Source of the DNA: Prorocentrum cordatum
Taxonomy: Eukaryota
Assembly: GCA_963575745.1 (NCBI GenBank)
Contig: CAUYUJ010000285.1
Coordinates: 62,001-115,849 of the forward strand
Length of the DNA stretch: 53,849 nucleotides
Reading direction: 5' to 3'
Under the pieces are notes generated by a model. That model searched no databases and was not told the DNA's origin. It worked only from the letters and a program-made list of their open reading frames with translations. Shown here piece by piece: positions 27,157 through 53,849 of this stretch. Position 1 is the stretch's first letter. Every line of letters begins with the position of its first letter. Both the position numbers and the translations under genes were made by a program.

Positions 27157-27204
<48 letters not shown>

Positions 27205-27236
27205 TTCATCATCATCAACATCAACATCAACATCAA

Positions 27237-27309
<73 letters not shown>

Positions 27310-27920
27310 GCGGGACACCGCGGGACACCGGCGGGGGACACCGCGGGGCACCGCGGACACCGCGGGACACCGCGGGACACCGGCGGGACACCGCGGGCCA
27401 CCGGCCGCCCGGAAGGGAATCATTTGGTCCGGCCGCGCCTCAGCCACACAGGACTTTCGCGGGACACCGGCGGGACACCGCGGGCCACCGGCCGCCCGGA
27501 AGGGAGTTATTTGGTCCGGCCACGCCTCAGCCACAGGAGATTGCCCGCCCACGCAGCTTCGCCTCGCCCGCACGCACGGCACGCACGAACACGAAACCGA
27601 AATCGATTTCCCGGTAGGGGGGCTCTCCGTCCCACTTCGATCTCACCCCCTCACCCCCGACATACATGCATGCATGCATACCCACATACCCACATACCCA
27701 CATACCCACATACCCACATACCCACATACCCACATACACACATACACACACACACACACATATACACATGCACACATACATACATACATACATACATACA
27801 TACATACACATACATACATACATACATTACATTACATTACATTACATTACATTACATTACATTACATTACATTACATTACATTACATTACATTACATTAC
27901 ATACATTATATACATACATG
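25385..27920. repeat. Two copies of a ~310-bp GC-rich module (25385-25690; ~27360-27660) with intervening (CATA)n and (CAT)n and trailing (TACAT)n
   Basis: Shared cgggacaccg repeats, tttggtccggccgcgcctcagccac and cacgaaaccgaaatcgatttcccggta. Confidence 0.85.
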
Positions 27921-32441: not shown

Positions 32442-32463
32442 TGCGCAGTCACTTGGGCTCAAG
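32442..32463 (+). promoter_or_regulatory. SL-like motif 52 nt upstream of the A gag ATG
   Basis: tgcgcagtcacttgggctcaag, 17/22. Confidence 0.65.
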
Positions 32464-32515
32464 CTGCCTGCCGCTCAGTTTGCGCCCCCTACGCTGGCGT
32501 CTTCTGCCATCACTA

Positions 32516-33781
32516 ATGGCTTTCGCGCACCAGGATGTGCTTGCCTTCGTTGCTGGGTTGCCCCAGGGTGCCCTGGGAGGCGCGGCGCAACAGGACATGG
32601 TGGAGTGGTGCTCGTTCCTGCTCGACGTTGATCCGTCGCCGAAGGCGAAGCACGACCTCTTCTGGTACCTGTCCGTCGGGCGCCTGCTGGGGGAGACGAT
32701 GGGCTCCATCTCTCCCCTGGACTTGGCCGAGCCTGCCATGCGGGACGTCATCAGCAGCACGATCAAACACGGCGAGAAGCCGTACGACAAGGATGGTGAG
32801 AGCCCCGTGTTCCGTGCGTGGGCAGTGCAGCCAGCCCAGATCGCCTTCGCACTCCGTGTTCAGAGGAAGTGCGGGGCCACAGAGCCGCCCCCTCCAACTC
32901 CCGAGGCCACCTTGGCTTCCACGATGCGCGAGTACTTGGAGGCCCAGGCGGCCACCCACAAGCGGTCAACCAAGGCGCTTTCTTTTAAGCTGTCTGAGCG
33001 GGTTGCTGAGCTTGGCATGGCCACCTTCCCGGAGGATCTGCTGCCATCGGAAGAGAACTTGGCTGTTTTCGAAGCGGCAGGCCGCGTCGCACGTGACAAA
33101 GGCCGCTTGTACATCGGCAGCGCAGAAGGCGAGGACCTGCAAAGGAACTTTCGCCCTTCATGGTCACGCGTGCCGGCCGTCGAGGTCCCCGGTGGGGACG
33201 GGTCGGTGCCCGACCGCCAGCGGCAGATGGCCGAGCTGAAGCGCGCTCGCGCCGCCACGGAGGTCGACTACCCCGGCTACGCCACTTTCCAGGCCCATTT
33301 GCTTGATTGGGGAGTCAAGCTGATCCTCATGAAAACCGCCACCCCCCAGGACATCCTGGGGTACAGCTTCCTGCTGGCCAAGGTGGCGGAGGAGCACGGC
33401 GGCGCCCGCGCCGCGTACCAGTACGACATCCTGGCGCGGAAAGCGATGGCCAAGGGCCTAGAGAAGGGCGACGCCGACTGGAAAGTGATGTTCTCCAGGA
33501 TCGACCGGGACTTGGCCAAGGAGGCCAGGGGCAAGGTGACGGCCAGGGCTTCTGATGCTGCGAAGTTCGCCCACACCAAGGGCAAGGGCAAGGGGAAAGC
33601 CGACGGCGCCGCTCAGAAGGGCGGTTCCGGTCACGGCTCTGCCGCCAGCTCGGCGGCGCAGTCCCCTGCGCCCAGGTCTCCGTTGGTGCCGCCGCGCTCG
33701 CGCAGCCCGCGCAAGCAGCAGGGCGGCTGGCAGGGCGGCTGGCAGAGCCAGGACCGCGGCGCCAAAGCGTGGAAGAAGTGA
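32516..33781 (+). CDS. gag: Element A gag-like protein (421 aa)
   Basis: Clearly homologous to the ORFs at 44170-45523 and 47370-48713 (AKHDL, IGSAEGEDL, RPSWSR, YATF, AEEHGG.R.AYQYDIL.RKAMA); position upstream of RT. Confidence 0.85.
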   Translation: MAFAHQDVLAFVAGLPQGALGGAAQQDMVEWCSFLLDVDPSPKAKHDLFWYLSVGRLLGETMGSISPLDLAEPAMRDVISSTIKHGEKPYDKDGESPVFRAWAVQPAQIAFALRVQRKCGATEPPPPTPEATLASTMREYLEAQAATHKRSTKALSFKLSERVAELGMATFPEDLLPSEENLAVFEAAGRVARDKGRLYIGSAEGEDLQRNFRPSWSRVPAVEVPGGDGSVPDRQRQMAELKRARAATEVDYPGYATFQAHLLDWGVKLILMKTATPQDILGYSFLLAKVAEEHGGARAAYQYDILARKAMAKGLEKGDADWKVMFSRIDRDLAKEARGKVTARASDAAKFAHTKGKGKGKADGAAQKGGSGHGSAASSAAQSPAPRSPLVPPRSRSPRKQQGGWQGGWQSQDRGAKAWKK

Positions 33782-34516
33782 GCGGCTTTCGTTAGCGGAA
33801 ACAGCAGTGAAGATTCTCGTGCGGCCGCTCTCCTCTGGGATGGTCCTGTGCGCTCGCACGGACCGTTGGGCGACACACAGCGTGCAGCCGGGCAGGGGAG
33901 CACGAGAGACCCCAAGGAGCCCTCGAGACCCAGCCCGGCTAGCACACAAGACACCCCAGGGAGGGCGGGCGGGAAAGCCGGCCGCGCCGGCAAAAGCGAC
34001 GCCCCAGGCGACCAACGCCCGCGGCCCGCAGGAGGGCGCGCCGGCCCGCCAGAGCGTCGCCCCGACGAGGCCGCGCGCGCCCAGGCCACACTGCACAGCC
34101 GTTGGCCTGCAGCGTAGCCACGCGGCCCCCACGGGAGCACTGGCCGATATTTGCTACCCCGCCTCGGGCCCGGGCGGCAAGGGGAGCGGAGACGCCGAAA
34201 GGCAACCGAATCACCGAATCCCCGAATGGGGACAGAAGCGGCCTGTGAGAATCTTCCTCCCCAGAACCAAAGCTTAGGGATGATGAAGATTCTCGTGCGG
34301 CCGCTCTCCTCTGGGATGGTCCTGTGCGCTCGCACGGACCGTTGGGCGACACACAGCGTGCAGCCGGGCAGGGGAGCACGAGAGACCCCAAGGAGCCCTC
34401 GAGACCCAATGCTGGGGCTCTCGGCGACCCGGACCCCAACCCCACTGCTGACGACGAGAGCACAGCAGCACTGATGATGGCACAGACCCGACGATGATTT
34501 TCACAGTCTCCACTGC

Positions 34517-36020
34517 TCACGGCGCGCCGTCGGACGCAGACGAGTCCGAAAACTCCACTGGCCACTCCGCAGCAGTCATGGCGTCTCTGGAGGCGGCAGA
34601 GGCGTAGCCGAACGCAGCGACGCCACGCCAGCCTCCACTGTGGAAGAGCGCCGGCACGCCGCCCGCCGCTAAACACTCGTCCGCCCAGCCTCTGCGGAAG
34701 GCATGTGTACCCCACTCGGCCGCGCGCTCGAAGCCGAGCGCCAGCGCCGATGCTTTCAGCGTGGCCAGAGCCGCCCTGTAGGACAGGCCAGGGAAGAGGC
34801 GCCCCCGCCCAGCCCGGCGCTGCAGGACGCACACCCCGCACAGCTGCCGCGACTGGAGAACGCAGATGCACCGCCTCGTCACCACCACTGTCTCTGTGTG
34901 CATCTTGCGCTTGTGCAAGTAGATGCACGCCTTGGGCAAGCCCCCGTCGACCGAGAGCACGACCCTGGAGTGCGACCCGTCGCTCCAGAGGCACCACCTC
35001 CGACGCGAAACGGAGACAGAAATGTCTGGCGACCACGAAGGAATCCGCCACCAGCGGATCCCGGAGCACCTCCCGCACGTGGCCAGCAACGCTGCGGGTG
35101 TCGTGCGCACTGGCCCGCGCTCGAAAGCGGCTCGTGCCGGGCACCGTTTTGGCGGCCCCCCGTGCCAGATTTGAGGTATCTTCCAAACACCCCAGAGGGA
35201 CCCGGACCAACCGCAGGGCCGCCCGGACCTGTGTGCAGTACGTCATCAGCGTGTTGCCGTTCTGCACTGCGAAAGGGCCCTTGGCTACCTGGCCCCAAAG
35301 CCGCACTGCGGACGCATACTTGTAAGCACTCCGATGCCACCCGCAGAGCTCTCGTCTCAAAAGCTCCTGCGTCGCTGCAAACTCAGACATATTGCCCACC
35401 AGTTGCAAAGCACGCTCTCTCGGGTTGCCCCCTGCGCCTCCGTGACGCCGAGCCCATGCCACTTGGAGCTCTTCAGGCGTAACGCGGCCCAGCGTTTGCA
35501 CTGCGTCGGCCAAGTCCTTGGGCTCCAGGAACGTCCTCCGAAAGCGAGCTGCGGCCAGGAAGCCAAGAGCAGCAAGGGCAGCTTCAGCTTCGCCCCCTTC
35601 TGGCCCTGCGGGCGTGGCGCTTTCCACCAAAGGCGATGCGACCTCACCGCTCGGGCCGCCGCTGCCCTGGGAGTGCCCTGCCGGCGGCGCCACAGGAGAG
35701 CGCTTCCCGGAAGGGAAAATGGCCAAGAATTCACTGGCCAGCTCTCGAAGGCACGGCCAGACGTCCCGAAGTTCCTGCACACTCATGTCGTTGAAGTCAT
35801 CTCCAACCACGGCCCCGCCACTGGCGAGAGCGCGCAACACATTGTCAGGCGATGCCGGGTGGTAACGCGGCGGCGTGCGCCGAATCACCCCTGTAAACCA
35901 CTGTGCAAGAGCAGGCGGCACCACATCATGGGAGCATGCTTCTTCTGGCGGCTCAGGGTCCGAAGCGCCATCGCCCAAAGCCCACCGCGCGCGTTTGCGG
36001 TTGATGAACTCAAGTGCCAT
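34517..36020 (-). CDS. Element B tyrosine recombinase, one frameshift near 34975
   Basis: Starts MALEFINRKRARW; FCLRFASE (R), WGTHAFRRG (HxxR), GGWRG, FGYA (Y). Confidence 0.85.
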
Positions 36021-36042
36021 GTTGGGCCAAGCTGACTACGGA
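36021..36042 (-). promoter_or_regulatory. Dinoflagellate spliced-leader-like 22-mer abutting the B YR ATG
   Basis: tccgtagtcagcttggcccaac vs DCCGTAGCCATTTTGGCTCAAG, 17/22. Confidence 0.7.
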
Positions 36043-36136
36043 TGACTGCGTGGGAGGCCGTGCGCCGGAGTACGCGGCAAGAAACGCTGACGAATCAACA
36101 ACTGCACTTTTTTCCTTCCTCGCGAATGCATGCCCG

Positions 36137-37440
36137 TCACCGCCTGTGCTGCCAGAAATCCACTGCCGGCCAAGCCCACTCGAGGCGAGCGAAGCCGCGA
36201 GAGACCAGCTGTGCCAACTCCGATGCCTTCTGCTCTGGACGAGTTGGCCAGTCTGCCAAATTTAAATGTGAAGGCACGCGGAATGCACTTAAAAAGTGGC
36301 CACGGTCTGCTGCAGCAAACCACACGCCAGCCACCATAGCATTCCAGTCACGCTGGCGGGAGCACCCGCGGAGCAGCGTCCCGAGTGCGACTGTCGAGTC
36401 GATGAAAATCACAACGTCGAGCCCCGCTGCGCCTTCGGGCAGACTGAAAAACTGCCAGAGTGCACACACTGCAGCTACTAGTTCCCAGGTGTGGATTTGC
36501 TGCTGACGCGGGCAGGCCCACCTCGCAAGCCAGCCCGGCACTGGCGCTGAAGCGAAAAACTTACGCCCGGCCAGCACTGCCACCCAAGCCAGCACGCCTG
36601 CTCCCGAGGCGTCAGTGTACACCACCAAACGTGGCTTCACCGATGGCGACAGCGGGACGGCCCTGCTTGGCTGCGAATTGAGGAAACGCTGCCACCACAG
36701 GAGCGCAAAGCGCAAACGCTTGGAGATGCGAGTGCTTCTCCCGGCTGAATGCCGGAAGAGCGGCGCCAGATAGACGCGCGCGCCCTTCCCGAAGACTGCT
36801 GTGGCCCCCCAGCTGAGCCGGCCGGCCAACTTCTGCGCGCGCGCTGGCGTTAAACGCTGGTCCCGGAGCACCTCTGCGATTTCCGCCAGCCACTTGGCGC
36901 ACTTGTCGCTGGGCACGACAAAATTTAAACACTCTGTGGTTGCGTCCACGGACACACGAACGCCCAGCGCAACAAAACTCAACGCTGCCGTAACTGCTTT
37001 ATGTGAATCAAGACGCCAGCCCAGCAAGTCCTGGATGACGAATCTAGCTAAAGAGGCGGCGCCTACGGCGCTATCACCCCATTCGTGCGCTTGCTCTGCA
37101 TCAATGCCGAAAAAATCGTCCACGAAACGTGGATACACGATGCTAAACAAACGCAAAAGTATGGCTTGAAAAGCCGCGCCCACGCGCTGCCAGGCATGGA
37201 CACTCGCCTTCCCCCCAAATGGACAGCAGAACAGCTGCAGGAACTGATCCTGCGAGACGGACTCCGCCGTCACAGCGGCCGCAAACGGGAGGTGCTCACT
37301 ATGCAGCGGGAGAGTTTTGTAGGCCTCGCAGACGTCATCCTTGCGGAAGCGGACGTCCGCTGCGCTGGCTCCACCAGCGACGAGGCACTGCGCCGCCGCC
37401 ACTAAATCATCGAGAGTTTCGTGGGCGACGCGTTCGGAGA
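36137..37440 (-). pseudogene. pol: Element B 5'-truncated RT-RNase H
   Basis: HETLD, RKDDVCEAYKTLP, CPFG, RFVDD, YTDASG, TWEL, FIDS, RVPSHLNLADWPTR; fused directly to repeat A1. Confidence 0.88.
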
Positions 37441-37722
37441 CCCAGGCGACCAACGCCCGCGGCCCGCAGGAGGGCGCGCCGGCCCGCCAGAGCGTCGCCC
37501 CGACGAGGCCGCGCGCGCCCAGGCCACACTGCACAGCCGTTGGCCTGCAGCGTAGCCACGCGGCCCCCACGGGAGCACTGGCCGATATTTGCTACCCCGC
37601 CTCGGGCCCGGGCGGCAAGGGGAGCGGAGACGCCGAAAGGCAACCGAATCACCGAATCCCCGGATGGGGACAGAAGCGGCCTGTGAGAATCTTCCTCCCC
37701 AGAACCAAAGCTTAGGGATGAT

Positions 37723-39501
37723 GCTGCCAGCGATGATTCGGCCACTTTTGTCGCCGGCGGTGCTGTTGGTGCGTCTCCGCTCCGTTCTGCCCCGCGGGGG
37801 GAGGTGGAGCTTCCTTTTCAGTTTGCATGCCTCGATTGTCCTCGTGTCGCTGCGGCGCGGAGGGCTGTGCATAGCTTCCTGGACGATCCTGCAGTGCGTG
37901 ATTGCACGCCGCTCGATCATTTGAACTGGGCTCTGGGTCTTCCGTCCTGTGACGAGCTTCCCGAGATCCCTGCAGCTGTGGCAGACTCGCTTTGCCAGGT
38001 GCTTGCCTTCGACGGGCATGCGTTGGCCGAGTCCCGCGCTGCGAGCCTCGAGTACTGGCGGCAGCGCAAGCGCGTGCTGGACCCACTGTGGGCGGGCAAA
38101 TTCGCGGGATTGCCTGCGCACGTCCGCAGCGTTCTTGGTCCGAAGAAAAATTTGCTTGTTCTGTCGGAGATGCTCGAGGCGATCAGCTGGCCCGACGACC
38201 GGCTGGTGCGCGACCTGCAGTGTGGTTTCCCTCTGATCGGCGAAATTCCGCGCAGCGGGGTTCTGCCATGCATCTCTTTCTCTGCTCCCGCTGAAAATGC
38301 GGTTTCTTTGCGCGCACAGGCGCCAGTTTTGAACTCTGTCACGCGTCGCCGTGTGAGGCGGCCTCGGGCTGTGGAGCAGTCCGTTCGCGATGCGTTTGAG
38401 CAGAAATACATCGAAGAGGCCAGCGATGGCCACGCAAGGTGGCGCCCGTTGCGTGACACATGCGTGCTCACAGCCAGGTTTCCAGCCGACGAGGGCTGGA
38501 GAGGGGATTCACGGAAGGTGCGCTGCGTCGACGATTTCACGGCATCCCGTGTGAATGCGGCTGTGTCAGTGGGTGAAGCCATCCAGCACGACACGCTGGA
38601 CCATTTCGTTGCCGTGGCGTGCAAGGTTGTCCGCGCGGGCGCTGGCGGAGCCGCGCTTCGCAAGGAGGATTTCGTAGGTGCGTTCAAGACCCTTCCCCTC
38701 GCGAGCTCCCACCTGCAATTTGCGGTGGTGACGTGGGGTTCGGCGGAGGCCCGCGGACTGGGCCTGCAGCTTCTCGCTTGTCCCTTCGGCGCTGTCGCGT
38801 CCGTGTACAAGTGGGAACGCTTTGGCGCGGCCGTCCGGGCAATTTTGGCCAAGCAGTTCCATGTTGTTTTCCTCCGGTTCGTGGACGACCTTTTTGGGCT
38901 GGACGGAACCCTCGAGGGCGCGCCGCACTTGGCAGCGCCAGCTGGGGCCAGCGCAGTTGCCGCAGAGGTGATATCTGAATTGCTAGGGTGGGAGCTCGAC
39001 GCTTCCAAGCGCGTTTCGGCGTCAGCAGCGGCTCCGATCCTTGGAGTTGACTGCGCGGTCGAGCGCGAGGCCTGCGCTGTGCGATTGTCGGTTGGCCCTG
39101 ATAAGCTCTCGCGATGGAAGCGCCAGATTCAGGACATTCTTGCGCGGCAGGCGATTTCCCCAGCAGAAGCCAAGAAGTTGGCCGGCAAACTCAGTTGGGG
39201 AACCTCAGCGGTTTTCGGCCGAGCAGCGCGCGTGCATTTGGCACCCCTGTTCCGCCACTCTACCGGGGAGTCTGGGCGTTGGACCGGGCGCCTGGAGCGG
39301 GCGCTTCAGTGGTGGCTGCGTTTTCTAGACTGCGTGCCGCAACGGCGCGTATTTAGCTTGCAGCCCACAGCCAGGACCAAGTGCATAGTTTACTCTGACG
39401 CCACTGGCGGTGGTGACCTCGCCTGGGTGGTTTGTGCGCCCAACGCGCGCGTCTGGTCCTCGGCACGAGTTTCCGGTGCTGTCTGGCGCTGGGTTTGCTA
39501 T
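37723..39501 (+). pseudogene. pol: Element A pol (RT + partial RNase H), disrupted by insertions B and C; first codons at 33782-33808
   Basis: KVRCVDDF, KEDFVGAFKTLPL, CPFGAVASV, RFVDD, KLAGKLSW, YSDATG. Confidence 0.88.
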
Positions 39502-39842
39502 GAAAACACTACCGACGACCTCCGCGGGAGCAGTGGGACGCGACAGACCCCGCTGCCTGACTGGGAGACTCTGGGACAAGTCCAAATCCCCAGTCAGGCG
39601 ATCGCCGAAAACCGAACCACCACCACCAGGGCGGGTGGGCGGGAAAAACCGAACACCGAGCAGCCGGCACCAAGAAGACCGCCCCCAGCGGCCCACCGAG
39701 GGAGCGCGCCGCCAGTGACCAACACCGCGGGCACCATGGCCGCGAGCACACGGCCACCGAGCCCCCGAAAGGGAACTGCGGCGCCACCGCCCCCAAGGGC
39801 AAAGACGACGACGACGCCGACGACAGACAGACAGACAGACAG

Positions 39843-39910
<68 letters not shown>

Positions 39911-40319
39911 CGGCCCAGAGAGACCGACGGACAACCGCGACCTCACCGAGGCCCCCAGGCGCGTGAGAAGCAACACCGCCGACGGGAAGCGCCGCCAGGC
40001 ACCACCAGCTCCACCAGGAGCACCCACTTTGGGATAAGGCGAGTGAGCAAAGAAGCGGAGGAGTACATAGACAACTCCGGCCGCTCGTTGTTTTCTCGCG
40101 CTGAAAACGCTACGCGTTTTCGCGCGGAGAAAACACTACCGACGACCTCCGCGGGAGCAGTGGGACGCGACAGACCCCGCTGCCTGACTGGGAGACTCTG
40201 GGACAAGCCCAAATCCCCGCTGCACCCAGACCTCCCAGGCGGAAGCTGACCACGCGTTGCCTGTGAAGCAAGAGAGAATCTTTTTGGAACCACAGCCAGG
40301 CCCAATGCACCAAGAAAGT

Positions 40320-41871
40320 TCACTCGCCGTCTGACGAGCTCGAATGCTCGACCAAAAATTCAGCTGCCTGCAGGGCCCCACGTGCCCGGGCACTGGCGTA
40401 CGCAAAGGCAGTCAACCCACGCCAGCCTCCACTGTAGAAGAGGGCAGTCGGACCTCCTGCTTTGAGAGCATCCGAAGCCCAACCACGCCTGAAAGCATGC
40501 GTGCCCCACGCCTGCGGGGACCTCAGATTGCACGCGGCCGCTGCTAGTTTTAAGAAAGCCAGCGACTCGGAATAAGATATGTGTTGGAACGGTGGCTCTT
40601 TGGCCTCGACAACAGGCACTAAGGCGCACACGCCGCACAAAGACGGCCCCTGCGTCCCGCATATGCAGCCCCTGACCACTTCAACTGGCTCCTTGTAACA
40701 TTTCCGCCGCAGAAATGTTACGATCACCTGCTTCTTGCCCTTGGCCTCCTTGATTCTAAGTGGGGCCAGGCTCGTACCAATAATCAAGGTTTCACTATAG
40801 CGCAAGGTGAAGTGGCGCGACACAACCCACGACCGAGCCACGTCCGGCCTGGATGCCGTCTCGGAAGCCCACTTTGCCAGGGCGCGCGTGTCTCCTGGCG
40901 AAGCCCTCAACTTCACGGCGAGTCGCCGGATCCGTGGCCTTCTCAGCGCCCCGAATCAAGCGGGAAGTGTCCGCCAAAGGACCTGGTGAACTTTTCAACC
41001 AAGCCAACACTGTTCGAAGACGAGACACATACTGCGCCAACGAAGCTCCGCTCCGAAAGAGAGACACGAAGCAATCCAAGATGCACTCCTGAGGGGGCCA
41101 AGGCTCCACGCGCACCGTAGCCGCTGCCTGTCCCCACAAAACCACAGCAGGCGCATAACCCAAGGCACTTTTTCGCCAGCCTTGAAACTCAATCCAGCAT
41201 GCCCGCTCCGCGAAGACGGCGGCGGGAGCGGGGCTTCGTTGAGCTTCGCGAGCTTCAGCTGTTGGCGCCTGGCCAGGCATGTCCACGGGCGGCTCTGGCA
41301 CTTTGTGGAGCACGCGTATGGCGTGTGCCAGTACCGGCGGCGGGGGGACACAAACCGATTGCCTTGCAGCCACTACCAGTCGCAATGCTGCGAGCGCTTG
41401 CGCCATTTCTTCGGCTGACGCCGAGGCTGGCGCAGCTGGACCCGCCAATGAACGCTCACGGCTGTGAGGCTGGCGGTCCGTCTGCGATTCCTGCACCGCT
41501 GGCTGCTGCATCCCCCTATCCGCTCGACCACAGAACAACAGAAAAACCTTGACGATGGCAACGTCCAGCTGGCCCAGAGCAGGCCAAACCTCCTGCGCCT
41601 CGAAAGCGTCCAACGAGCCAAAATCACTGAAGGAAGTCGCGCCGTCGCGTTGCAGACTTGCTGCAATGCCGTCCGCGTCATGGACGTCCTGCTTCGCGGC
41701 GCCACCGGCCCTCTGAAGCACGCTCGCCAATTCACCGCGCCAGCGATCCGCAGGATGGCCAGGACGTGGAAGGGAAGCGCCAGGCGGCAGTGCTGGCTCG
41801 CTGGCCTCAGGAAGCCCCTCTCGTAAGCGCTGCCATCGCGCCCGCTCTGCGTTGACAAAACTCAACGCCAT
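40320..41871 (-). CDS. Element C tyrosine recombinase, frameshift near 40915
   Basis: Starts MALSFVNAERARW; GWRKSA..Y, FTLRYSE, WGTHAFRRG, GGWRG, FAYA. Confidence 0.85.
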
Positions 41872-41896
41872 GTGCCGGCCTGCAACCCGCAATCTG

Positions 41897-41916
41897 TTTG
41901 AGCCGAAGGCTACGGA
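41897..41916 (-). promoter_or_regulatory. SL-like motif 25 nt upstream of the C YR ATG
   Basis: tccgtagcc--ttcggctcaaa, 18/22 with a 2-nt gap. Confidence 0.72.
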
Positions 41917-42014
41917 AGACAAAGCAGAAGTGCCAGGCAGAAGCCGCACGTGGAAAACTGAGTGCGCCTGCGCTGCGCATATTTTCCTTCCGCGGACACC
42001 CAGCCATTGCCGCC

Positions 42015-44169
42015 TTAGCTGTCCCAGGGGAGCGCTGGCCAACGCCAAGCCGTCTCCCGGAAAGACAAGCTGTCTAGTTCAGCGCGGCTCTGCTCTGCTT
42101 TACTTACGCGAGTAGGCCCATCTGCCAGATTCAACGCAGAGGGGACATAATGAGCGTGCATAAGCACACTTGCTGCAGCTAGATCGAACCAGATGGTGCC
42201 CAAAACTGCGTTGAGGTCAGGCTGCCGGGAACTGCCACGCAAAAGTGCGCTCAACGCCGCTGTGTTGTCGATAAACACAATGAGCTCTGGTGACTCGACT
42301 CCTTGCTCCAAGAAAAGCCGCACGCCGCACAATGCTGCCACTAATTCCCAGAGGGTCACCTGCGTGCGCCTGGGCCGAGCCCAAGCCCAAGCTCTAGACG
42401 GAATCTTTGCTGCCGCCCAGACACGCTTTGACAGAGTTTGAAGCACTACAGCCAAGTTCCCTCCGCCAGTGGCGTCAGTGTACAGGATGCACCTCTGGAG
42501 CGGAGGTTGGCTGAACCGCACGAAAACGGAAGGGTCAGAACTTAAAAACCGTTCCCACCACTGCAGAGCATTGCGCACGCGAGCTGCCAGCGTACGTTTC
42601 CGTTGGCTGCTCTGCCAGAAGAGCGGTGCCAGAAAAACTCTCGCACCGCGGCCAAAAACCGCTGTGGTCCCCCAGCTAAGGCGACCAGCAAGTTTAGCAG
42701 CCTCTGCTGGCGCCAACGCGTCACTACGCAAAGCATCACGAATTTGCTGGAGCCACTTATTTTTCTTCTCGCACCCAATCCAAAACCAAATGCCCTCCAG
42801 GCAGGCCTTCGCCTCTACGCCTAACACGGTCATTTGTGTCGCCTCAGCAACTGCTTTGGATTCATCTAGCAGCCAGCCAAGCAAGTCCACGATCACTGTG
42901 CGCGCCAACCCCGCCGACCCTCGCGGACCCACCAAAGATCCGGGATCCGCGGTGCTCGCGCACGCGTCTGCGCCGAACAAATCGTCGACGAAACGCGGAT
43001 AAGCAAGCAGAAATATACGGGCCAAAATTGCTTGCACCGCGCTACCGAATCGATGCCACGCAAACACAGAAGCCGCCGCGCCAAAAGGACAAGAGAGCAA
43101 CTGTAATCCCTTGTCCTGCTGCGCAGCACTACTCCACGTGGCAACTGAAAACCGGAGATGGTTCTCCTGCACAGGAAGCGTCTTGAACGCACTCTTAAAA
43201 TCATCCTTGCGGAAGAGCAGAGGCGAACCCCCCTCTGCAGCGTCAAAACAAGCCCGGGCCACACCAACAAGTGCATCGAGCGTGTCGTGACGCATTTCCT
43301 CTGGAATGCAAGTGGCAGAATTGAGACCGTTGCCACTGAAATCGTCGATCAGACGTACTTTCCTACTCCTCTGCCCGGCACGTTCCCGCCAACCTTCGTC
43401 GACAGGGAAGCGGACTGCAAGCAAAGCATCTACGGCGGAAAGCTAAACCCAAAAAGCTTTCCTCTGCGCAACCTCTTCTTTGCATTTGTTCTCAAACGCC
43501 TCCTCTACCGCGGGGCACAGCGACGTGCGGGCCCACACCTTGCACAAAGTGTCGGCGTTGATAGCGCCCACCGAAGATTCCAGCGCACTTACGGCCACTG
43601 GTTCGGACACGTGCCGCTTCGGAGGCATTATACCGGAAGGATTCAACCTACCTACGATCGGAAACCCGAAAGCTAAGTTATGTACAAGCTCTTTATCTGG
43701 CCACGCGATGCTCTCGAGCATCTCCGCGAGAAGCAGCAGATTCTTCCCCGGCCCTACCAGCTGCTGCACGTGCAGCGGTAATCCCTGCAGAATTTGCTCC
43801 CAGGGGACAGCCAGGTCACGTTTCCGCCCCTGCCAGTACTCTAAAGCGTCAGCGCGCCATCTATGCAAAGCCCCCGGGCTGAGAGCCGAGGATTTTTGAA
43901 TTGCATCCTGCAGCAAAGGGGGGCAAGCAGCCCTCACGCGCGACGCGCGGCAAAGACTGCGCCCATTTAAAATGCACCACAGGTGTCATAGCAGACCGGG
44001 CGTCCCGATCCTGTAGCAGAGCATGCACGGCCGAACGGATCTCGACAAGAAAACCCTTTCCACCACTACCTGGAAACTCGATTGTTTCCTCTGTACCCTG
44101 AGAAGAGCTCCCGTCAGAAACCTCGCTCAGTTGTTCCTCCACGTCTGTGTCGGGGAATCGTCCTTCCCC
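42015..44169 (-). pseudogene. pol: Element C pol (RT + RNase H), frameshifts near 43920 and 43440
   Basis: ORF pieces 43861-44142, 43443-43937 and 42015-43424 are collinear with D pol; KVRLIDDF, RKDDFKSAFKTLP, RFVDD, YTDATG, FIDN, YVPSALNLADGPTR. Confidence 0.88.
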
Positions 44170-45523
44170 TCACTTGTTCCACCACTTGTCCTGCCAGGAC
44201 TTGTTGCCCTGGTTGTTGCCATGGCCGCCCTTGCCTCCCTTGCCGTTGGAGTTGCCGCCGTTGCCAGAGCGCTTTGGCGACCTGGACCTCTTCTTCTTGG
44301 GGGTGCTCGGCGCGGGCCCAGCCCCTTTGTGCGCCTTGCCCTGGCCCTTCGGCGCCGCCCCGCTGGAGCTGGCATTGCCCAAGCCTCCGTAACCAGAGCT
44401 GCTGCCACCGTAGGTCCGGGAGCCTCCGCCGTGCTGCGCCGGTGGTCGCCCGGCCGGTGGTCTCCTTCATCTTCTGAGATACTTTATCTTTGGCCTTCCG
44501 GGCCATGTCCTCGTCGAGCACGTTGAAGTAGTGCGAAAGCCGGTTCTCGCCTCGCTCGAGCGAGCGCGCCATCGCCTTACGCTGCAAGATGTCGTATTGA
44601 TAAGCCGTCCGGACCCCGCCGTGTTCCTCAGCTATGTGGGTCAGATTGAACAGGTAAGCCAGAAGCTCCGTGGACGAGCACGCTCTCATCAGCACGCACT
44701 TCATCCCCCACTGGAACACGTGACCCATGAACGTAGCGTAGCTCTGATAATCAAGCTTCAACTCGTCCGCTCGGGCTTTCTTGTCGTCGAGCACATGCCT
44801 CAGCTTCTCCTCGATAGATGAACCAGTCGGTGGCGCAGCCACGACAGGCGTGCGCGACCATTCCGGTCGGTGGTGCGTCTGCGGACACTCACCGTCCGCG
44901 CTGCCGATCCACTTGCGCTGCTTCTCGGCGGCCACTTTGCCAGCATGCTCGAATTTGGCCAAGGTTTCTTCTGAAGGGAGCCCATCCGACGGGAATTGCG
45001 CCAAACCCATTTCTTGGATCCGCTTGGCCAAATCGAAAGACAAACCCTTCTTTGCAGAGCCCGCCGCGGCCGTGTGAGACGTCGCCTGGACGAACTGCTG
45101 CATGGCATTGGCGAACACCGAGACCCCTGCAGCATCCGAATCCGAAGCCATCTTCATCTTGGACTGAAACCTACCCTGCGCACGCAGAGCCAGCGACAGC
45201 ATAGCAGGCGTCAAAACAAATTCTTTCCAACCCTCAGGGCCGGAAGAGGCGAACGGCTTGTCGTGGAGCACCAAGCCAGTCTTGAGGGAGTCGCGGATGA
45301 AGTCGTCTGCGTAATCCTCCATCTGGACGCCCTGCACGACCTCTGCCATGGCACGCGCCGTGCCAGTGTAAAAGCGAAGGTCATGTTTAGCCTTGGCGTT
45401 TTCGTCTACAGAGCAGACGAACTTGGCGAACTCCAAAATATCTTCTGTGGAAGCGCCTGCGAATGCTCCCTGCGGGAGGCCGGCGAGGTCCGAGCTGATC
45501 TCATCTGCTGAGAACGAAGCCAT
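44170..45523 (-). CDS. gag: Element C gag-like protein, frameshift near 44440
   Basis: Homologous to the A and D gags; the true C-terminus (RSRSP...WQDKWWNK) is in the 44170-44382 frame. Confidence 0.82.
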
Positions 45524-45602
45524 GACGCAGCAGTACAGGACAGGAGCCTGCAGGTGATCTGCAACGCAGCTGCTGCACAGTAGCACTTGAGTGTGTGATT
45601 TG

Positions 45603-45624
45603 CCTGAGCCAACACAGCCACGGT
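45603..45624 (-). promoter_or_regulatory. SL-like motif 79 nt upstream of the C gag ATG
   Basis: accgtggctgtgttggctcagg, 17/22. Confidence 0.65.
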
Positions 45625-46549
45625 GCTGCATGCTTGCGCGCATAACAACAATGACTGGCTGCAACGGATCATGACCGATACTGCTGTTGCACCGGGACAT
45701 GGGCGCACGCAACGTTGCAGCCCCAGAGAGCCCGCACCTGCGTCCCGCAACCAGTTCTTCGAACGCGCCCAGCTGTCACCGACGGCGCGCCAGCGGCTAG
45801 AGCCACACCCAGCAAGAAGGAGGGAAAGAAGAGAGTCCTCCGCTCCGCTCCGCCTCCGACGGCACCAACTCGCACAGTGACGCTGCTGCGCATCCCGGCG
45901 ACCCCCCTTTGACGTTAATCGCGGCCAGGGGGGCCACTCGGGTCACCCTTGCGCGAAACCATGCAAGCTACAGCGGTGCCACGCCAATCCCAGTCGAACC
46001 CCTTTGACCGCCGAGCGGCCAGGGGAGCCACATGGGTCTCCCTGCACCCCCCCCTCCGCCAGGCCAGGTCAGAGCAAGGAGAGAGGAATTTTGAGCGTAA
46101 CGAGGCCTGTTTTGGCCAAGTAACCTCACGCGAGAGGGCTTCCGCTCATCCCACGCTACTTCGGCTGACCATCGTCGGACATTTTTCATGATTCATAAAC
46201 TCGTTTATGCTGCAGGAAAACCGTGAGGAGCAGCCCCACGTGTGTTTGCCTCCACTCCTCAATTCCTGCACGCTCAATGCCTGCGCAGCGGGCTGGTGTC
46301 GGCGGCCGGCGGTTTCTGCGCGAAGCGGCGGAAGTATGCTCACCTTGCTCTGTTCGTGTGTACTCTGGTGCGGTCTCGCATGGCGGTTCGCCCGCGCTGC
46401 TCGGGTCTCGTCTGCTGGGCCGATCGTGTCTCGCAGTTCTTCTGTCGCTGCTCCCGTGCGCTGGCTCCTTGAAGCCAGATCGAGAATGCTCGCTGATACG
46501 AGCAGCGGCAAAACAAAACTCGCCGACAGCGGCTGCACAAACAAGACAG

Positions 46550-47010
46550 GCTCCCTGATAGGAGCGGCGCGTCCGAAGCTCCCTGAAAGGAGCTGCGCCT
46601 GCGTGCTCCCTGATAGGAGCCAGCGGCGCCTAGCGCTCCCTGAAAGGAGCTGCGCCTGCGTTCTCCCCGACAGGAGCGGCGCCCTAAAGCTCCCTTGCGC
46701 GTGTTCCCTGACAGGAGCAGCGGCCGAAAACTCCTTGACGGGAGCGGCGCCTCGAAGCTCCCTGATAGGAGCGGCGCTTCAAAGCTCCCTGACAGGAGCG
46801 GCCCCCCCAGAACAGAAGTTCGCCGAAGGGGGCGGCGCCCCATGCTCCCTGAAAGGAGCTGCGCCTGTGCGCTCCTCGACAGGAGCGCTGCCCACCAGAG
46901 CTCCTTCCTGTGCTCCCTGACAGGAGCAGCACCCCCAGGCTCCCTGAAAGGAGCTACGCTTGCGTGCTCCCAGACAGGAGCGGCCCCCCCAAAGCTCTAT
47001 AGCAGGAGTC
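46550..47010 (+). repeat. Array of ~15 palindromic units gctcc-ctgaNa-ggagc (period ~27 bp) in D repeat A1; shorter copy at ~53025-53290
   Basis: Counted directly. Confidence 0.85.
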
Positions 47011-47264
47011 GCGCCTGCGCGCCTCCTGGGGCGGTTCCGTGGCGCTGCGCCGGCGCGCCCCCCAGCAACAGCCTGGCGGCTGTCTGCCAACTTTCTGAGC
47101 GCCGGGCGTCCGAGTGCCCAGAATTACATTCTGTGCTCGTTTCTGCGCTCTGGTGCCAGGCGCGACTTGGCGACCATTTGGGCCTCGCGAGTGTTGTGCT
47201 TCGCACAATTGGGGTTTTCATATTCAGTCGGAAGGACTGCCATTGCTGGAGAGTTTGGTCATTA

Positions 47265-47286
47265 CCTGTCGCTTTTTAGGCTCAAG
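47265..47286 (+). promoter_or_regulatory. SL-like motif 83 nt upstream of the D gag ATG
   Basis: cctgtcgctttttaggctcaag, 16/22. Confidence 0.6.
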
Positions 47287-47369
47287 TGAACCACTCCTGC
47301 TGGGATTGAACCCTTCTTCGCACTGCAGCGTGCTCCACAGGTGTAAGTTGCAACCCAGCCGTGCCCACC

Positions 47370-48713
47370 ATGGCTTTCTCTTCCGGCGACGTCTCTGCCA
47401 TGATTGCCACTGCGCCGAGCGGGGCCTTTAACAAGGCCAACGCTGACCAGATCCGCGATTGGGTCGACTTCGTGCTGAATGTCGAGCCCAACGCGGCGGA
47501 GAAACACGAGTTGTTCTACTACGTGTCGGTGGCTCGCCTCTTGGCGGAAACGATCGGCAGCACCTCGCTCTCGGATTTCGAGGATCCACACATGCGCGAG
47601 ATGATTAAGGCAGCGATTGTTGTGAACGATTTGCCGTACGCCGCAGAGCAGGATCCAGCATGGAAAGCCTGGAAGGTTTCGCCAGCACAGGTCGTCTTCG
47701 CACTCAAGGTGCAGACCAAGTGCGCCCAAGCTGCACCACCCGCCCGCTCGGCTCCAGAAGCCGGCGCTGGGTCGAGCGACGTGGCAGGAATGGCCGAAGC
47801 TGTGAAACAGCTTGCAGAACTACAGACCCAGGCGCTCCAGAAGGGCAAGCCGAAGGGACTCAGCTTCAAGCTTCAAGACAGGATCGTTGAAGTGGGCTTG
47901 CAGAATTTCGATAAAGACACCCTCCCGTCCGAGGAAATCTTGGCGAAGTTCGAGGCCGGAGCCAAGATCGCCAACGACAAGGGCCGGGCTTGGATCGGCT
48001 CTGCAGAAGGCGAAGATCTCCGCGATCATCACCGCCCAGCATGGAGTCGCACCCCTCTCGTCGACGCGGTCGTGGGCGACGGCTCCCACGAGGATCGCGT
48101 GAGACAGAGTGCGGCCGCCAAGCGCGGAAGCGCTTGGATCGATAAGATCGATTACGTGAGCTTCGCGACCTTCATGGGGCATCTCCACGAGTGGGGTTTC
48201 AAGGTGATCCTCACGAAGGCGTGCAGCATGGCGGACTTTTTCTCCTACGTGCATATTATGATCCGCATCGCTGAGGAGAACGGCGGGGTCAGGACGGCGT
48301 TTCAATACGACGTCCTCCAGCGGAGGGCCATGGCCAAAGCGCTGGAGAGGGACGAAACCGATTTGAGCAGGTACCTTACAAGGATCGATGTTGATCTCCT
48401 GCGCACGGCCAAAGACAAGGTGGATAAGCGCTTCGCGGAGCTCGCTCGTGCATCTGGCGCGCCCAAGGGTCAGTCCAAGGGCCAGCCCAAGGGCGCCTCC
48501 AAGAGCTACGGCGACGGGGGCAGTCATGCCTCCAGCAGCGCATCCTCTGGCGGCAAGGGCGGCAAGAGCGCTAAGGGCGACAACCGGCGCGTCCGTTCGC
48601 CGCCCGCGCGGCACAAGGGCAGCGCTGGTGGCGGCCAGCAGCATCGGTCGCGCAGCCCGCGCGCTGGATGGCAGCAGTCGGGCCAGTGGGACAAGCAGTC
48701 CTGGAGCAAGTGA
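47370..48713 (+). CDS. gag: Element D gag-like protein (447 aa)
   Basis: Intact ORF homologous to the A and C gags. Confidence 0.87.
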   Translation: MAFSSGDVSAMIATAPSGAFNKANADQIRDWVDFVLNVEPNAAEKHELFYYVSVARLLAETIGSTSLSDFEDPHMREMIKAAIVVNDLPYAAEQDPAWKAWKVSPAQVVFALKVQTKCAQAAPPARSAPEAGAGSSDVAGMAEAVKQLAELQTQALQKGKPKGLSFKLQDRIVEVGLQNFDKDTLPSEEILAKFEAGAKIANDKGRAWIGSAEGEDLRDHHRPAWSRTPLVDAVVGDGSHEDRVRQSAAAKRGSAWIDKIDYVSFATFMGHLHEWGFKVILTKACSMADFFSYVHIMIRIAEENGGVRTAFQYDVLQRRAMAKALERDETDLSRYLTRIDVDLLRTAKDKVDKRFAELARASGAPKGQSKGQPKGASKSYGDGGSHASSSASSGGKGGKSAKGDNRRVRSPPARHKGSAGGGQQHRSRSPRAGWQQSGQWDKQSWSK

Positions 48714-50833
48714 GCGGTCACGCCGCTCGCTGACAGTGCCGACGGTCAGCAGTCGGAAAGCGAGTCAGGGGACGATGAGCCCATGGAGCGCTCTTCGGCT
48801 CGTCCCAGCGCTGCTTTTAAGCATTCTAAAGCTGGGCTGTCGCATGTCGGTGCGCGTGTACATAGCTTTCTCGCTCGCGATGATTTGCATCGCCTAGATC
48901 CATGGGATCACTTGGAGTGGGCGTCGGCCTTGCCTGTTTGCGCAGAAGTTCCTCTTTTGCCGCACTTTTTGGAAAAAGGCTGCGACCGCGTGACAAGATT
49001 GACCCCTGCAGAATTGCACTCGGCTCGTAAATCAGCGCTCGCTTACTGGTCGGAGAGGAAGCGAGTGACGGAGCCCTGCTGGCAACGCGCGTTCGCGCAG
49101 CTGCCAGCGCACTGCCAAGGTGTGTTAGGGCCCCGGAAAAATCTTTTTCTCCTTAGCGAGATGCTTGAGTCCATCAGCTGGCCAGACGCCACGCTGATTA
49201 GCAATTTAATGCACGGTTTTCCTCTTGTCGGCTTGCTCCCAGCGAGTGGGATGCGCGTTCCGACAGGGAACGCAGCGCCGGAGGTAACCAAAGCTGCTCT
49301 ATTGGCCACTGCGAGCGTTCAGAACAGACGCATTTTGCGGCGATCGTCTTTGCCACTCGGGATGGACAGATCTGTCTGCGAAGTTTTTGCTTCTGCATGC
49401 GACCGGGAGGTCGCGGACGGCAAGGCTAGAATGCGTCCGTTGAACATAGAAACTTGTGTTTTAACCCCGAGATTCCCAATCGTGCAAGGTTGGAAGACCG
49501 TAGGCTGGGAAACGTTTCCCAAAGTTAGATGCATCGATGATTTTTCTGCGTCGCGCATCAATGAAGGCACGCAAGTATCCGAGAAGATGCTTCCCGAAAC
49601 GCTAGACTCACTTGTAGCGCTGGTGTTGAAGCTCACAAAATCAAGAACAATGCGCATTCGTTGGCGCAAAGATGATTTTGTGCAAGCCTTCAAGACACTA
49701 CCAATATGCAGCTCTCACCTTCCATTGGCAGTTGTCGTGTGGCAGGAGGCGTTGGCTAAAGACCAGTGTCTCCAGCTCCTGGCAATGCCCTTTGGCTCTT
49801 CCGCCTCCGTGTCCGCCTGGGAGCGGTTCGGTTTGGCAATTCAGGGCGTGCTTGCGCAGATTTTCCTAGTGCTGTACCTTCGCTTCGTCGACGATCTGTT
49901 TTCGGGCGACGCGATGGAAGAGCAAATAGATGTTGGCGGAGACCCTCTGACGGGCCCTGCTGGCACTGCCAAGCTGGCCAGGTACGTAATTTCAGATCTT
50001 CTCGGCTGGGATTTGGATGCCGCCAAGGCTGTCACAGAACAGCCATCGGCCACCATTCTCGGCGTCGGCGTTCGTTTTGATGACGCCCGGCAAGAGATAG
50101 TTTTTGACGTGGGTCCGGAGAAGCTCGAGTTGTGGAGCTCCCAAATCGTCAGGGCCCTCAAAGCGGGCGCGTTGCCGCCGGCAGAAGCGCAGAAGCTGGC
50201 CTTGCGTTTGAGTTGGGGTGCCAGCTCAGTTTTTGGCAAGGGGGCGCGTGCTCCGCTGGCAACTTTGTTCTTTCATGGCGCAGGCCGCACCAGCCGTCTC
50301 ACTGCGAGGACGAGGCTCGCGCTCATATGGTGGCGTAAGTTTTTGCAATCGCCACCCTCGCGGCGTGTACCGCTGCAACTCCGCGAGCGCCAGCGGTGCA
50401 TTTTGTACAGCGACGCAACCGGCACTGGCATGATGGCGTGGGTGCTGCACGCTCCTTTCGCCAAAGTCTGGGCCGCCACCAGGGTGCCCGACAGCGCTCG
50501 CCAATGGGCACACTGGCGAAAGAACCAAATCGGCACCTGGGAGCTGATGGCAGCGATCTGCGCATTGAAATGGATTTTAAGCATTGGCCAAGCAGATCTC
50601 GAGATCATCTGCTTCGTCGATAACAAAAGCGCATTGGGTGCGCTTGTGCGAGGTTGCTCGCGGAAGTCCGATTGGAATTGTCTGATTGGCAATCTGTGGC
50701 TTCTCGTCGCCGACAAGGCGCAGATGCCCCCACACGGCCGTCTGAGAAGGCAGAGCAAATTGCCGAGCTGCAGGCGCGAAATTTTCAACGCGTTGAGTGG
50801 CTGTTTCCGCCGGATGCACCCTGGGGCGGCTGA
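48714..50833 (+). CDS. pol: Element D pol (RT + RNase H), in frame with gag after TGA; small deletion/frameshift near 50722
   Basis: KVRCIDDF, RKDDFVQAFKTLP, MPFGSSAS, RFVDD, YSDATG, TWEL, FVDN. The VPSxxNLA segment is missing; DAPTR...PWGG* resumes in another frame. Confidence 0.88.
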
Positions 50834-50905
50834 GAAAAAAGTGAAACAATAACATGTGCACAGGTTCTGATTGGAGGAAGAATGCCATGCGCCAGTCTTG
50901 CCTTC

Positions 50906-50923
50906 TCCGTAGTATCGGCTCAA
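50906..50923 (+). promoter_or_regulatory. SL-like motif abutting the D YR ATG
   Basis: tccgtag-tatc-ggctcaa keeps both ends of the SL. Confidence 0.62.
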
Positions 50924-52431
50924 TGCTTAGTTTTGTAAACGAGAGCCGAAGCAAGCGTCTGCGTGCTGAAGGTGCCCCGCCAGGGCAGCCGAGCGATGTG
51001 AACTCGGTTTTCGCTTGCGTGCTGCAGGGCGTGGCTGGCGTGAATATGGTTGATATCTCTGGTCTTTGCGAAGCTCTGGAGAACGGTGGCTTCCAGCATT
51101 TGTCTGATTTGGGCGGCTTGGAAGCAAATGAATTGGTAGATCTCGTCCCTGCGTTTTCTGGACAGAACGTTGCGCTCGTCAAAGCCTTCTTGGCGCAGTG
51201 TCAGCGCCAGGCCGACCGAGAGTTAGCGGCCGCGGCGTGCCGACAGGCAACGCTCACCGAGGCTGCCTCGTCCTCTTCAGGGGCTGGGGCAGAGGCGCAA
51301 ACCCGAGTTGCGACCCAAAGCGATCCACGTGAGGCAGCCAACGACGAGCAAGGTCGTGCTGGCTTGATCTTGCTTGGTGAATCGCGCCGTGCTCGCGTTG
51401 TTCCCGAACCTCCTGTGCTAGCAGCCGCGCTGGCGGCCGCCGCCCGCTGCAATTGCTATCCAGGGGCGGAGCCAATTGGCAGGCCCCGTGAAGAAGTCAA
51501 ACGTGCACGTCGCGATGTTCCTGGCGGAGATCATCTCCATCTCCACACTCTGTGGGTCGAGTTCGCTGCCTGGCGAAAAAGTGCTCCACAATACGCTTCC
51601 GCCGTCCGCTTGTGGGGCGAAGCTGCCAAGGCCATTTCGGCGCCCAGCTGGCCACCGTCCGAATCTGTTCTCAATGCCTTTGTGGGGTTATTCCGTAATG
51701 GGAACAGTTTGCAAAAATATGTTTCTCATGTTCGCAGTGTGCTCTACCTATTGCAGGCCCCTCTCGGTGTTCTCGACGACACAGAAAGGCTGGCCAGGGG
51801 TGCCGAGAAAATTACCCGAGACGTATTCAGGAGAGTGAAGATCCGGGCGACGGCGGAAGAAACCAAACTCATCCGCAAGTGGTGCGCTGAAGCTGGATAT
51901 CCGCTGTTGGCGGCGTCGTGGGTGATCGCTCGCCAATTTTGTTTGCGTTACTCTGAGTTGCTGCTCCTCGGGTCAAATGTTGTGACATTCCGCTTCAGCG
52001 GCGATGAACGCAAAACCTGTGTCATTCGTTTCGCGCATCGCAAATGTTACAACGAACCGTGTGAGACAACCAGACGTTGTATTTGTCAGCTGCAAGGGCG
52101 CTCCTTGTGTGGCGTCTGCGAATTATTCTCTGTAGGAGCAGCAGTGTCGGTCCCCTTCGCAAGCGTGCAATATGCCGACGCTCTTGCTGTTCTCAAACTT
52201 GCAGCAGCCGCTTTGCAGTTGCGGAGTGCTGCGGCCTGGGGCACGCACGCTTTCAGGCGAGGCTTTGCCGACGAGGCGCTCCAACAAGGAGGGCCCGCAG
52301 CTTTGTTTTCTAGTGGTGGTTGGAAGGGCGTGGCGGCTTTCGGTTACGTCAGCGCCCAAAGTCGCGGTGCTTTGTCGGCGGTCGAATGGCTAGTTGACCA
52401 CTCCGACTCAAGTGACGGCGAGCAAGCCTGA
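50923..52431 (+). CDS. Element D tyrosine recombinase (502 aa, intact)
   Basis: Starts MLSFVNESR; FCLRYSE, WGTHAFRRG, GGWKG, FGYV. Confidence 0.9.
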   Translation: MLSFVNESRSKRLRAEGAPPGQPSDVNSVFACVLQGVAGVNMVDISGLCEALENGGFQHLSDLGGLEANELVDLVPAFSGQNVALVKAFLAQCQRQADRELAAAACRQATLTEAASSSSGAGAEAQTRVATQSDPREAANDEQGRAGLILLGESRRARVVPEPPVLAAALAAAARCNCYPGAEPIGRPREEVKRARRDVPGGDHLHLHTLWVEFAAWRKSAPQYASAVRLWGEAAKAISAPSWPPSESVLNAFVGLFRNGNSLQKYVSHVRSVLYLLQAPLGVLDDTERLARGAEKITRDVFRRVKIRATAEETKLIRKWCAEAGYPLLAASWVIARQFCLRYSELLLLGSNVVTFRFSGDERKTCVIRFAHRKCYNEPCETTRRCICQLQGRSLCGVCELFSVGAAVSVPFASVQYADALAVLKLAAAALQLRSAAAWGTHAFRRGFADEALQQGGPAALFSSGGWKGVAAFGYVSAQSRGALSAVEWLVDHSDSSDGEQA

Positions 52432-53645: not shown

Positions 53646-53849
53646 CTCTCCATCTCGCCGGCAAAACCTGCGATGAGGAGCGCCAGCAAAACCGAACACC
53701 GAGCAGCCGGCACCAAGAAGACCGCCCCCAGCGGCCCACCGAGGGAGCGCGCCGCCAGTGACCAACACCGCGGGCACCATGGCCGCGAGCACACGGCCAC
53801 CGAGCCCCCGAAAGGGAACTGCGGCGCCACCGCCCCCAAGGGCAAAGAC

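Follow-up and report, generated by a model that had tools for sequence, protein, structure and literature searches.

Relict spliced leaders in dinoflagellate genes were reportedly described by Slamovits and Keeling in 2008. The relict leaders of host genes are degraded sense-strand copies of the dinoflagellate spliced leader (DinoSL) found a short way ahead of a start codon and preceded by a mini-poly(A), and the AG within such a relic can be a splice acceptor (PMC2488372, PMC3229502, PMC5585692). Both a use in cis and a promoter role have already been proposed for them: host genes with leader-like motifs before their start codons may give a leader-bearing message without trans-splicing (PMC2488372), and relict DinoSLs have been put forward as promoters of host genes (PMC5585692). 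Song et al. 2017 found genes of reverse transcription to be overrepresented among those that bear relicts (PMC5585692). Here we describe what are very probably relict leaders of this kind in a family of DIRS-like tyrosine-recombinase (YR) retrotransposons from a 53.8-kb stretch of Prorocentrum cordatum DNA (53,849 nucleotides of contig CAUYUJ010000285.1, hereafter the window). Unlike the host relict leaders, these are carried by an autonomous retrotransposon at two relics per element, one before gag and one at the internal boundary between pol and YR, where it has been kept across 27-63% protein identity.

Retroviruses express env from a subgenomic mRNA made by cis-splicing from a 5' donor, while the unprocessed RNA is the genome. 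The elements of the window would resemble them in expressing a downstream open reading frame (ORF) from processed RNA, and would differ in that the processing is trans-splicing of a host leader. To our knowledge, the expression of downstream genes by multi-ORF retroelements in leader-capped hosts is essentially unstudied in dinoflagellates. In C. elegans, the Ty3/gypsy element Cer1 has an SL1 trans-splice site that serves a subgenomic mRNA but that the full-length gag-pol RNA leaves unused (Dennis et al. 2012, PMC3315495), which makes it a precedent, within a trans-splicing host, for a spliced-leader acceptor that full-length RNA skips; it differs in having no DNA-encoded leader copy, and in host, leader, and element class (PMC3315495). 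The DIRS-like elements of Symbiodiniaceae (de Mendoza et al. 2018, PMC5890265) resemble the window family in encoding YR in an ORF of its own and in having a divergent reverse transcriptase (RT), putative in the window family, that Pfam barely detects. Their direct repeats are terminal or split, and the A-coding-B-A-B arrangement is seen here in two distant YR elements (L002 and L009). The window family has no DNMT domain. Leaders in elements are not discussed in that paper, which mentions trans-splicing once, in its discussion (PMC5890265). In the main texts of the literature searched, we found no publication combining DIRS, dinoflagellates, and the spliced leader, and none that describes a relict leader within a retrotransposon, including at an internal pol/YR boundary; supplementary lists may contain such genes. 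A first-pass annotation of the window had taken the arrangement to be undescribed; this stands for a relic inside a retrotransposon and does not stand for host genes (PMC2488372, PMC5585692). What appears to be new is the conserved placement of relict leaders within a retrotransposon; relict leaders as such and the cis and promoter ideas for host genes were known.

Protein comparisons and tblastn identify one family with four copies in the window (elements I to IV), which are only 36-49% identical to one another in protein sequence. Scanning both strands with the 22-nt DinoSL (DCCGTAGCCATTTTGGCTCAAG) gave exactly four ungapped matches of at least 16/22, at 32442-32463(+), 36042-36021(-), and 45624-45603(-) with 17/22 and at 47265-47286(+) with 16/22; no match with three or fewer mismatches occurs on either strand. 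Three matches of at least 17/22 compare with 0.075 expected (0/200 order-2 Markov simulations reached three), and four of at least 16/22 with 0.87 expected (1% of 200 simulations reached four). Two further sites require gaps, namely 41916-41897 (TCCGTAGCCTTCGGCTCAAA), with a gapped local alignment score of 13, and 50906-50922 (TCCGTAGTATCGGCTCA, with an ATG immediately after), which scores 7 only. A two-block pattern, TCCGTAG-N(0-10)-GGCYCA, matches the window three times, at precisely the three YR sites, against 0.03 expected and with none of 100 shuffles reaching three. At a gapped score of at least 12 there are six matches against a null mean of 0.83 (40 simulations), five of them at these sites and the sixth ending at 38853 within RT coding sequence that reads AILAK. 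The first-pass annotation had placed leader matches upstream of all three gag and all three YR ATGs, and the ungapped scan and the two-block pattern agree with it; all four ungapped matches fall on its sites, none elsewhere in the window, and their number exceeds simulation. All six relics are on the coding strand, 0-83 nt upstream of a gag or YR ATG, with 52, 79, and 83 nt from relic end to ATG for gag, and 0 or 25 nt, or an overlap, for YR. The six sites are not six independent events, because the element copies are homologous. In Rfam, no family reached its gathering score in the window.

Homologues of the gag proteins at 85-98% identity are named Prorocentrum cordatum in NCBI/UniRef, so the host is a dinoflagellate that uses the spliced leader, as the first-pass annotation had supposed; DinoSL-bearing transcripts have been reported from this species (PMC10666404). 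From their sequence and position, the motifs are very probably relict DinoSLs, that is, DNA copies of the leader trans-spliced onto dinoflagellate nuclear mRNAs.

Ahead of YR, the relic in element III (50906..50922, +) reads TCCGTAG tatc GGCTCA, adjoins the YR ATG, and has a pyrimidine-rich tract upstream; that of element II (41897..41916, -; TCCGTAGCCTTCGGCTCAAA) ends 25 nt before the ATG at 41871; and that of element IV (36021..36042, -) reads TCCGTAGTCAGCTTGGCCCAAC and is followed at once by the ATG. Outside the window, a metagenome scan yielded 24 loci (96.6 kb), of which a single one, locus L001 (RT identity 42%), is a member of the same family; L001 carries TCCGTAGTCAGGATGGCTCAAA directly before its YR start MALEFIDRKRARW. 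Scans of viral contigs and genome contigs found no relatives. The YR relic is accordingly present in 4/4 DNA copies, three in the window and one in L001. It is also translated in 4/4 protein clusters whose predicted N-terminus extends upstream of the true ATG, these extensions being LLRSIGS/M in P0001, SVAFGS/M in P0004 (and three further members), SVASART/M in P0206/P0207, and SVAIVAQ/M in P0016, where DinoSL itself would give SVAILAQ. P0001 is 98% identical to the YR protein of element III and its extension matches the element III relic; a search with the N-terminal region for further extended YR proteins returned P0001 only.

Identity among the YR proteins of relic-bearing lineages is 27-63%, and the flanks of the YR relic are unalignable. 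Since the relic stands in three reading frames relative to the ATG, and since its TAG is an in-frame stop in element IV and in L001, it is a conserved non-coding nucleotide element and not a protein feature. The exact 5' heptamer TCCGTAG is kept in 4/4 YR DNA copies, including A6-G7 in all four, while G22 is lost in all four, and the most degraded part of the leader is the U-rich middle at positions 10-14. The YR relics of elements II and III have a derived TCGGCTCA in common, and those of element IV and L001 have 8T and 11G; the derived state shared by II and III argues for inheritance rather than fresh capture. A possible hairpin (AGCC/GGCT stem, variable loop) was rejected: 5/7 stem changes keep pairing, but about half of transitions would do so by chance.

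Ahead of gag, relics lie in element I at 32442..32463 (+; TGCGCAGTCACTTGGGCTCAAG, 17/22), 52 nt before the ATG at 32516; in element II at 45603..45624 (-; ACCGTGGCTGTGTTGGCTCAGG, 17/22), 79 nt before the ATG at 45523, which is the gag start in place of the first ATG of the ORF at 45700; and in element III at 47265..47286 (+; CCTGTCGCTTTTTAGGCTCAAG, 16/22), 83 nt before the gag ATG. The untranslated regions (UTRs) around them cannot be aligned, and GGCTCA.G is an invariant island within them. The earlier claims that the motif was retained amid unalignable UTRs, and at two homologous positions in strongly diverged elements, both hold. Nearly every mismatch between the leader and the three gag relics is confined to a single relic, and only one derived state is shared. 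Across gag-type relics (elements I-III, L002 twice, L009, and L023), G22 is kept in 7/7 and A6 in 1/7, and the 5' end of the leader is mostly gone. Counted by independent lineages (6 vs 3), the contrast between the gag and YR classes gives about 0.05 and 0.01 in our own Fisher arithmetic. Two extended gag proteins read SGAMMAH and SVAAWAR 23-27 residues ahead of the start, and their interpretation as translated gag relics is suggestive only.

The gag relic of element III is about 200 nt internal to the left terminal repeat and has no 3' partner. Roughly 90 nt upstream of it is a weaker second leader-like stretch (47170-47200; score 8, 186 nt before the gag ATG), which is the only extra stretch found in a search for tandem piles of truncated relics, none being seen before YR. 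Several contigs from public runs break or diverge between 47142 and 47274, and paralogous contigs (loose ends before 47220, runs X1 and X5) carry a leader-like GCCATTTCTGGCAAG at the corresponding place. These second stretches may be tandem relics from repeated cycles.

More distant YR elements in the metagenome carry relics of the classical 5'-truncated type that are clearer than those of the window. In L002, relics of 19/22 and 18/22 (GCCATTTTGGCTCAAG) belong to the A repeat, so that one stands 89 nt upstream of a CCHC gag and the other recurs in A2; the relic of L009, in A2, reaches a gapped score of 15; and L023 and L024 each have a weaker one. Across the 24 loci, the matches of score at least 12 number six, and every one of them is on the sense strand. 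Split direct repeats of the form A1...B1-A2-B2 are found in L002 (130-356 / 7338-7564 and 7232-7277 / 7592-7637) and in L009 (2683-2763 / 3010-3090).

The octamer GGCTCAAG occurs eight times in the window against 3.2 expected. Six of these copies (1-16 kb) are additional to the relics and unconvincing as relics themselves, with 9-14/22 to the leader, and two of the six (3243-3290 and 15600-15700, +) belong to a CAAGATGGC-type short repeat.

The surroundings of the YR relic have a familiar form. Between tandem dinoflagellate genes, the spacer comprises a stop codon, a short 3' UTR, AAAAG/C at the poly(A) site, a spacer, an AG acceptor, and a 5' UTR (PMC2488372). In the four YR copies, pyrimidines make up 60-77% of the 30 nt that precede the AG of TCCGTAG (0.77 in element II), compared with 46% (sd 14.5) before all AGs of the window, and AAAAAAG or AAAAAAC occurs 59-77 nt upstream of the relic in element IV and L001 and within the last pol codons of element III. 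Mini-poly(A), pyrimidine tract, and AG together are the ordinary layout of a dinoflagellate poly(A)/trans-splice intergenic spacer. A single in-frame TGA joins gag and pol in elements I, II, and III and in L001 (window 33779-33781, 44172-44170(-), and 48711-48713; L001 189-191), so that each element has just two translation units (gag-pol and YR), both with a relic ahead of them; read from the sequence, the junction would imply stop-codon readthrough, as in some retroviruses, and not frameshifting. Motif identity, placement, conservation, and spacer anatomy are established by these comparisons.

We consider it about an even bet (probability near 0.5) that the relics mark the 5' processing sites of two element mRNAs, and that the YR relic has been kept as part of a poly(A)/trans-splice site at which a new leader is joined to the AG of TCCGTAG. 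The relics would derive from trans-spliced element mRNAs that found their way into element copies through reverse transcription or recombination, by the same route as the relics of host retrogenes, an origin suggested by the retroelement carrier and by the pairing of mini-poly(A) with leader. Selection would then have kept the YR relic as part of an RNA-processing site between pol and YR. The gag-pol message would end at the mini-poly(A) (AAAAG/C) shortly past the pol stop, and the pyrimidine tract and AG of TCCGTAG would accept a fresh leader to give a monocistronic YR mRNA, whose short 5' UTR would be the remainder of the relic. The gag relic would likewise mark where the 5' end of the gag-pol mRNA is processed. 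Copying would use unprocessed RNA as its template, and trans-spliced RNA would be the mRNA; as the gag relic of element III is internal to the left repeat, trans-spliced RNA would lack that repeat and could serve as mRNA only, as in Cer1. From DNA copies and translated protein predictions we infer how the relics arose, that the AG is used, and that two mRNAs exist.

Several points weigh against this account. Element II has GGAAGGAAAAT in place of AAAAG/C. The use of the AG is judged from four DNA copies in three independent lineages, the protein extensions being uninformative on position 6. In the window, A6-G7 is absent from 2/3 gag relics, and the gag relics as a class have no obvious pyrimidine tract, so that their role is less clear than that of the YR relic. 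Replication requires full-length RNA that escapes internal polyadenylation and trans-splicing, which is assumed here. None of nine distant YR-element loci has a relic of score at least 10 within 120 nt of the putative YR start, so the internal relic is a trait of this family and not a general one. Finally, the retention of GGCTCA(A) and of an exact TCCGT goes beyond the needs of a splice acceptor, and this excess keeps alive the idea of a leader mimic encoded in cis.

Under that alternative, which the first-pass annotation had put forward, the transcript would start at the first base of the relic, by an internal start in the case of YR, and would be translated without trans-splicing. To the machinery of cap recognition and translation, a YR transcript that starts at TCCGTAG might look like a host mRNA that had been trans-spliced, with a U-run like an Sm site purged as useless or harmful. 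The exact TCCGTAG in 4/4 YR copies fits this, as does the decay of the U-rich middle, positions 10-14, which we take to be the Sm-binding site that only the leader RNA itself needs. A 21/22 genomic leader of the peridinin-chlorophyll protein gene had led Bachvaroff and Place to consider the same possibility (PMC2488372). Leader-tagged ORF cassettes, if real, could also explain the shuffling of ORF order in dinoflagellate YR elements. On the other hand, the relics are only 16-18/22 and contain indels, most lineages have lost the 5' end from their gag-type relics, no promoter is evident, and the upstream pyrimidine tract and mini-poly(A) fit trans-splicing. Judged on sequence, we regard a cis-encoded mimic as improbable.

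We are similarly doubtful that the relics are neutral scars, functionless by-products of reverse-transcribed trans-spliced RNA that were acquired recently or repeatedly. Relict leaders are ordinarily explained in this way (PMC5585692, PMC2488372); such an origin predicts independent decay from the canonical leader, as seen in the almost wholly private mismatches of the gag relics, and it accommodates the weaker second leader-like stretch in the element III leader and the paralogous contigs. The YR relic is harder to place in it, being found in every lineage with upstream sequence or translation, down to 27-35% protein identity, with shared derived states between unalignable flanks and no tandem pile-up of truncated relics, and the two classes of relic differ in which AG they keep. 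Neutral scars thus suit the gag relics better than the YR relic.

A role as core promoter, in which TTT(T/G) of the relic would act as a TATA-like element for the ORF behind it, as in the retrogenes of Song et al. 2017, is very unlikely here. The gag relics, 52-105 nt before the ATG, do lie in the -50 to -100 zone of the best-conserved relict leaders (PMC5585692), but TTTT/TTTG within positions 11-15 survives in only one of the three window gag relics (III) and in none of the four YR relics. No preferential conservation of TTT(T/G) within relics was found, the T-run stressed in host genes (PMC5585692) being the least conserved part here, and in three YR lineages the ATG adjoins the relic, leaving no room for a downstream start site. 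Least probable of all is strand-transfer homology, with the leader copy acting like the R region of a retrovirus and complementary DNA that ends in the leader complement annealing to a relic elsewhere: the relic of L002/L009 lies within the A repeat (A1...B1-A2-B2), before gag and near the 3' end and thus at both element ends, where it could matter for strand transfer, but the element III relic is 200 nt outside its terminal repeat without a 3' partner, the pol/YR position is unexplained, and a relic expected to be canonical downstream of the switch point is most degraded in its middle.

The elements themselves appear to be DIRS-like YR retrotransposons of a Prorocentrum-type dinoflagellate. 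A profile of seven YR sequences matched Cre in PDB at E 4.5e-4 with H-x-x-R, W, and Y aligned, and for an AlphaFold (AF2) model of the element III YR (mean predicted local distance difference test score, pLDDT, 70.8) the top 26 Foldseek rows were Cre (best E 3.8e-3), with lambda Int, XerH, and XerA ranking next. These matches place the YR among tyrosine recombinases, which have the residues R..H-x-x-R..W/H..Y, and not among DDE integrases. Single gag and YR ORFs gave no Pfam match at E <=0.01; with the limit relaxed to E 10, 2/7 YR C-terminal sequences touch Phage_integrase (best E 0.2). For pol, RVT_3 alone was recovered, in one copy, at 22.4 bits (cutoff 21.6), and the pol alignment contains a conserved FVDD (YVDD-like) and RNase H-like blocks. 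This agrees with a report that Pfam misses the divergent RT of dinoflagellate DIRS elements (PMC5890265).

Element III (+, 46183-53348) is complete. Its left terminal direct repeat (46183..47066), which contains internal tandem repeats, and its right one (52656..53348) are 86-90% identical by self-blastn, with homology ending at 47066/53348; they are simple direct repeats, and no B pair was found. Its gag-pol (47370..50852) consists of gag at 47370-48713 and pol (RT/RNase H) at 48714-50852 joined by the one in-frame TGA, and the tyrosine recombinase ORF, with the profile and structure matches to Cre, follows at 50923..52431. Four public runs (X1, X3, and X5, apparently DNA, and X2, of unlabelled type) have contigs that cover element III with 90-99% identity, those of three runs having 39 extra bases at 50719/50722 of pol, which in one frame read WYVPSHLN (compare HYVPSALN near the C-terminus of the element II RNase H); in the window copy, pol has apparently lost a small segment at its end. 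Element II spans about 45624-40323 (-), and both its gag and its YR are frameshifted: gag and pol occupy 42015..45523 (-), with the gag ATG at 45523, one frameshift in gag, the TGA at 44172-44170, and one in-frame stop in pol, which runs to 42015, and the YR ORF occupies 40323..41871 (-), from the ATG at 41871, with a frameshift near 40946. Element I (+) is split by the inverted and truncated element IV (-), so that its gag (32516..33781, +) is followed by pol only at about 37687-39510, beyond the insertion. The element IV fragment (34523..37591, -) retains the C-terminal part of pol (37591-36140) and a frameshifted YR (36020-34523), and is flanked by 283-bp direct repeats, 99.6% identical (34003-34285 / 37441-37723).

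Around the nested elements there are further short stretches of high identity (98.9-100%): 39645-39806 = 53688-53849, 33808-33932 = 34284-34408, 34003-34285 = 37441-37723, and 39502-39591 = 40129-40218. Such scattered near-identical stretches point to recent rearrangement or assembly duplication. A 1277-aa ORF at 20731-24564 (+) belongs to another retroelement family, its RT matching RVT_1 at 28.1 bits, just below the cutoff; by eye, its C-terminus has C5-methyltransferase-like motifs (FSGSG, TPC, ENP) that recall DNMT-bearing elements (de Mendoza et al. 2018). Near the start of this ORF there is no leader relic with a score of at least 10. The region 26000-28600, unrelated to the relics, is of low complexity and strongly strand-skewed (GC skew -0.49), with long homopolymer-like codon runs.

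The YR relic at the pol/YR boundary would be among the clearest cases of selection on a relict DinoSL. If the relics are used as proposed, mobile elements would have adopted the machinery with which the host resolves its polycistrons, or would mimic the product of that machinery. The relic would then also offer an easy means of recognizing, from sequence, where element mRNAs begin.

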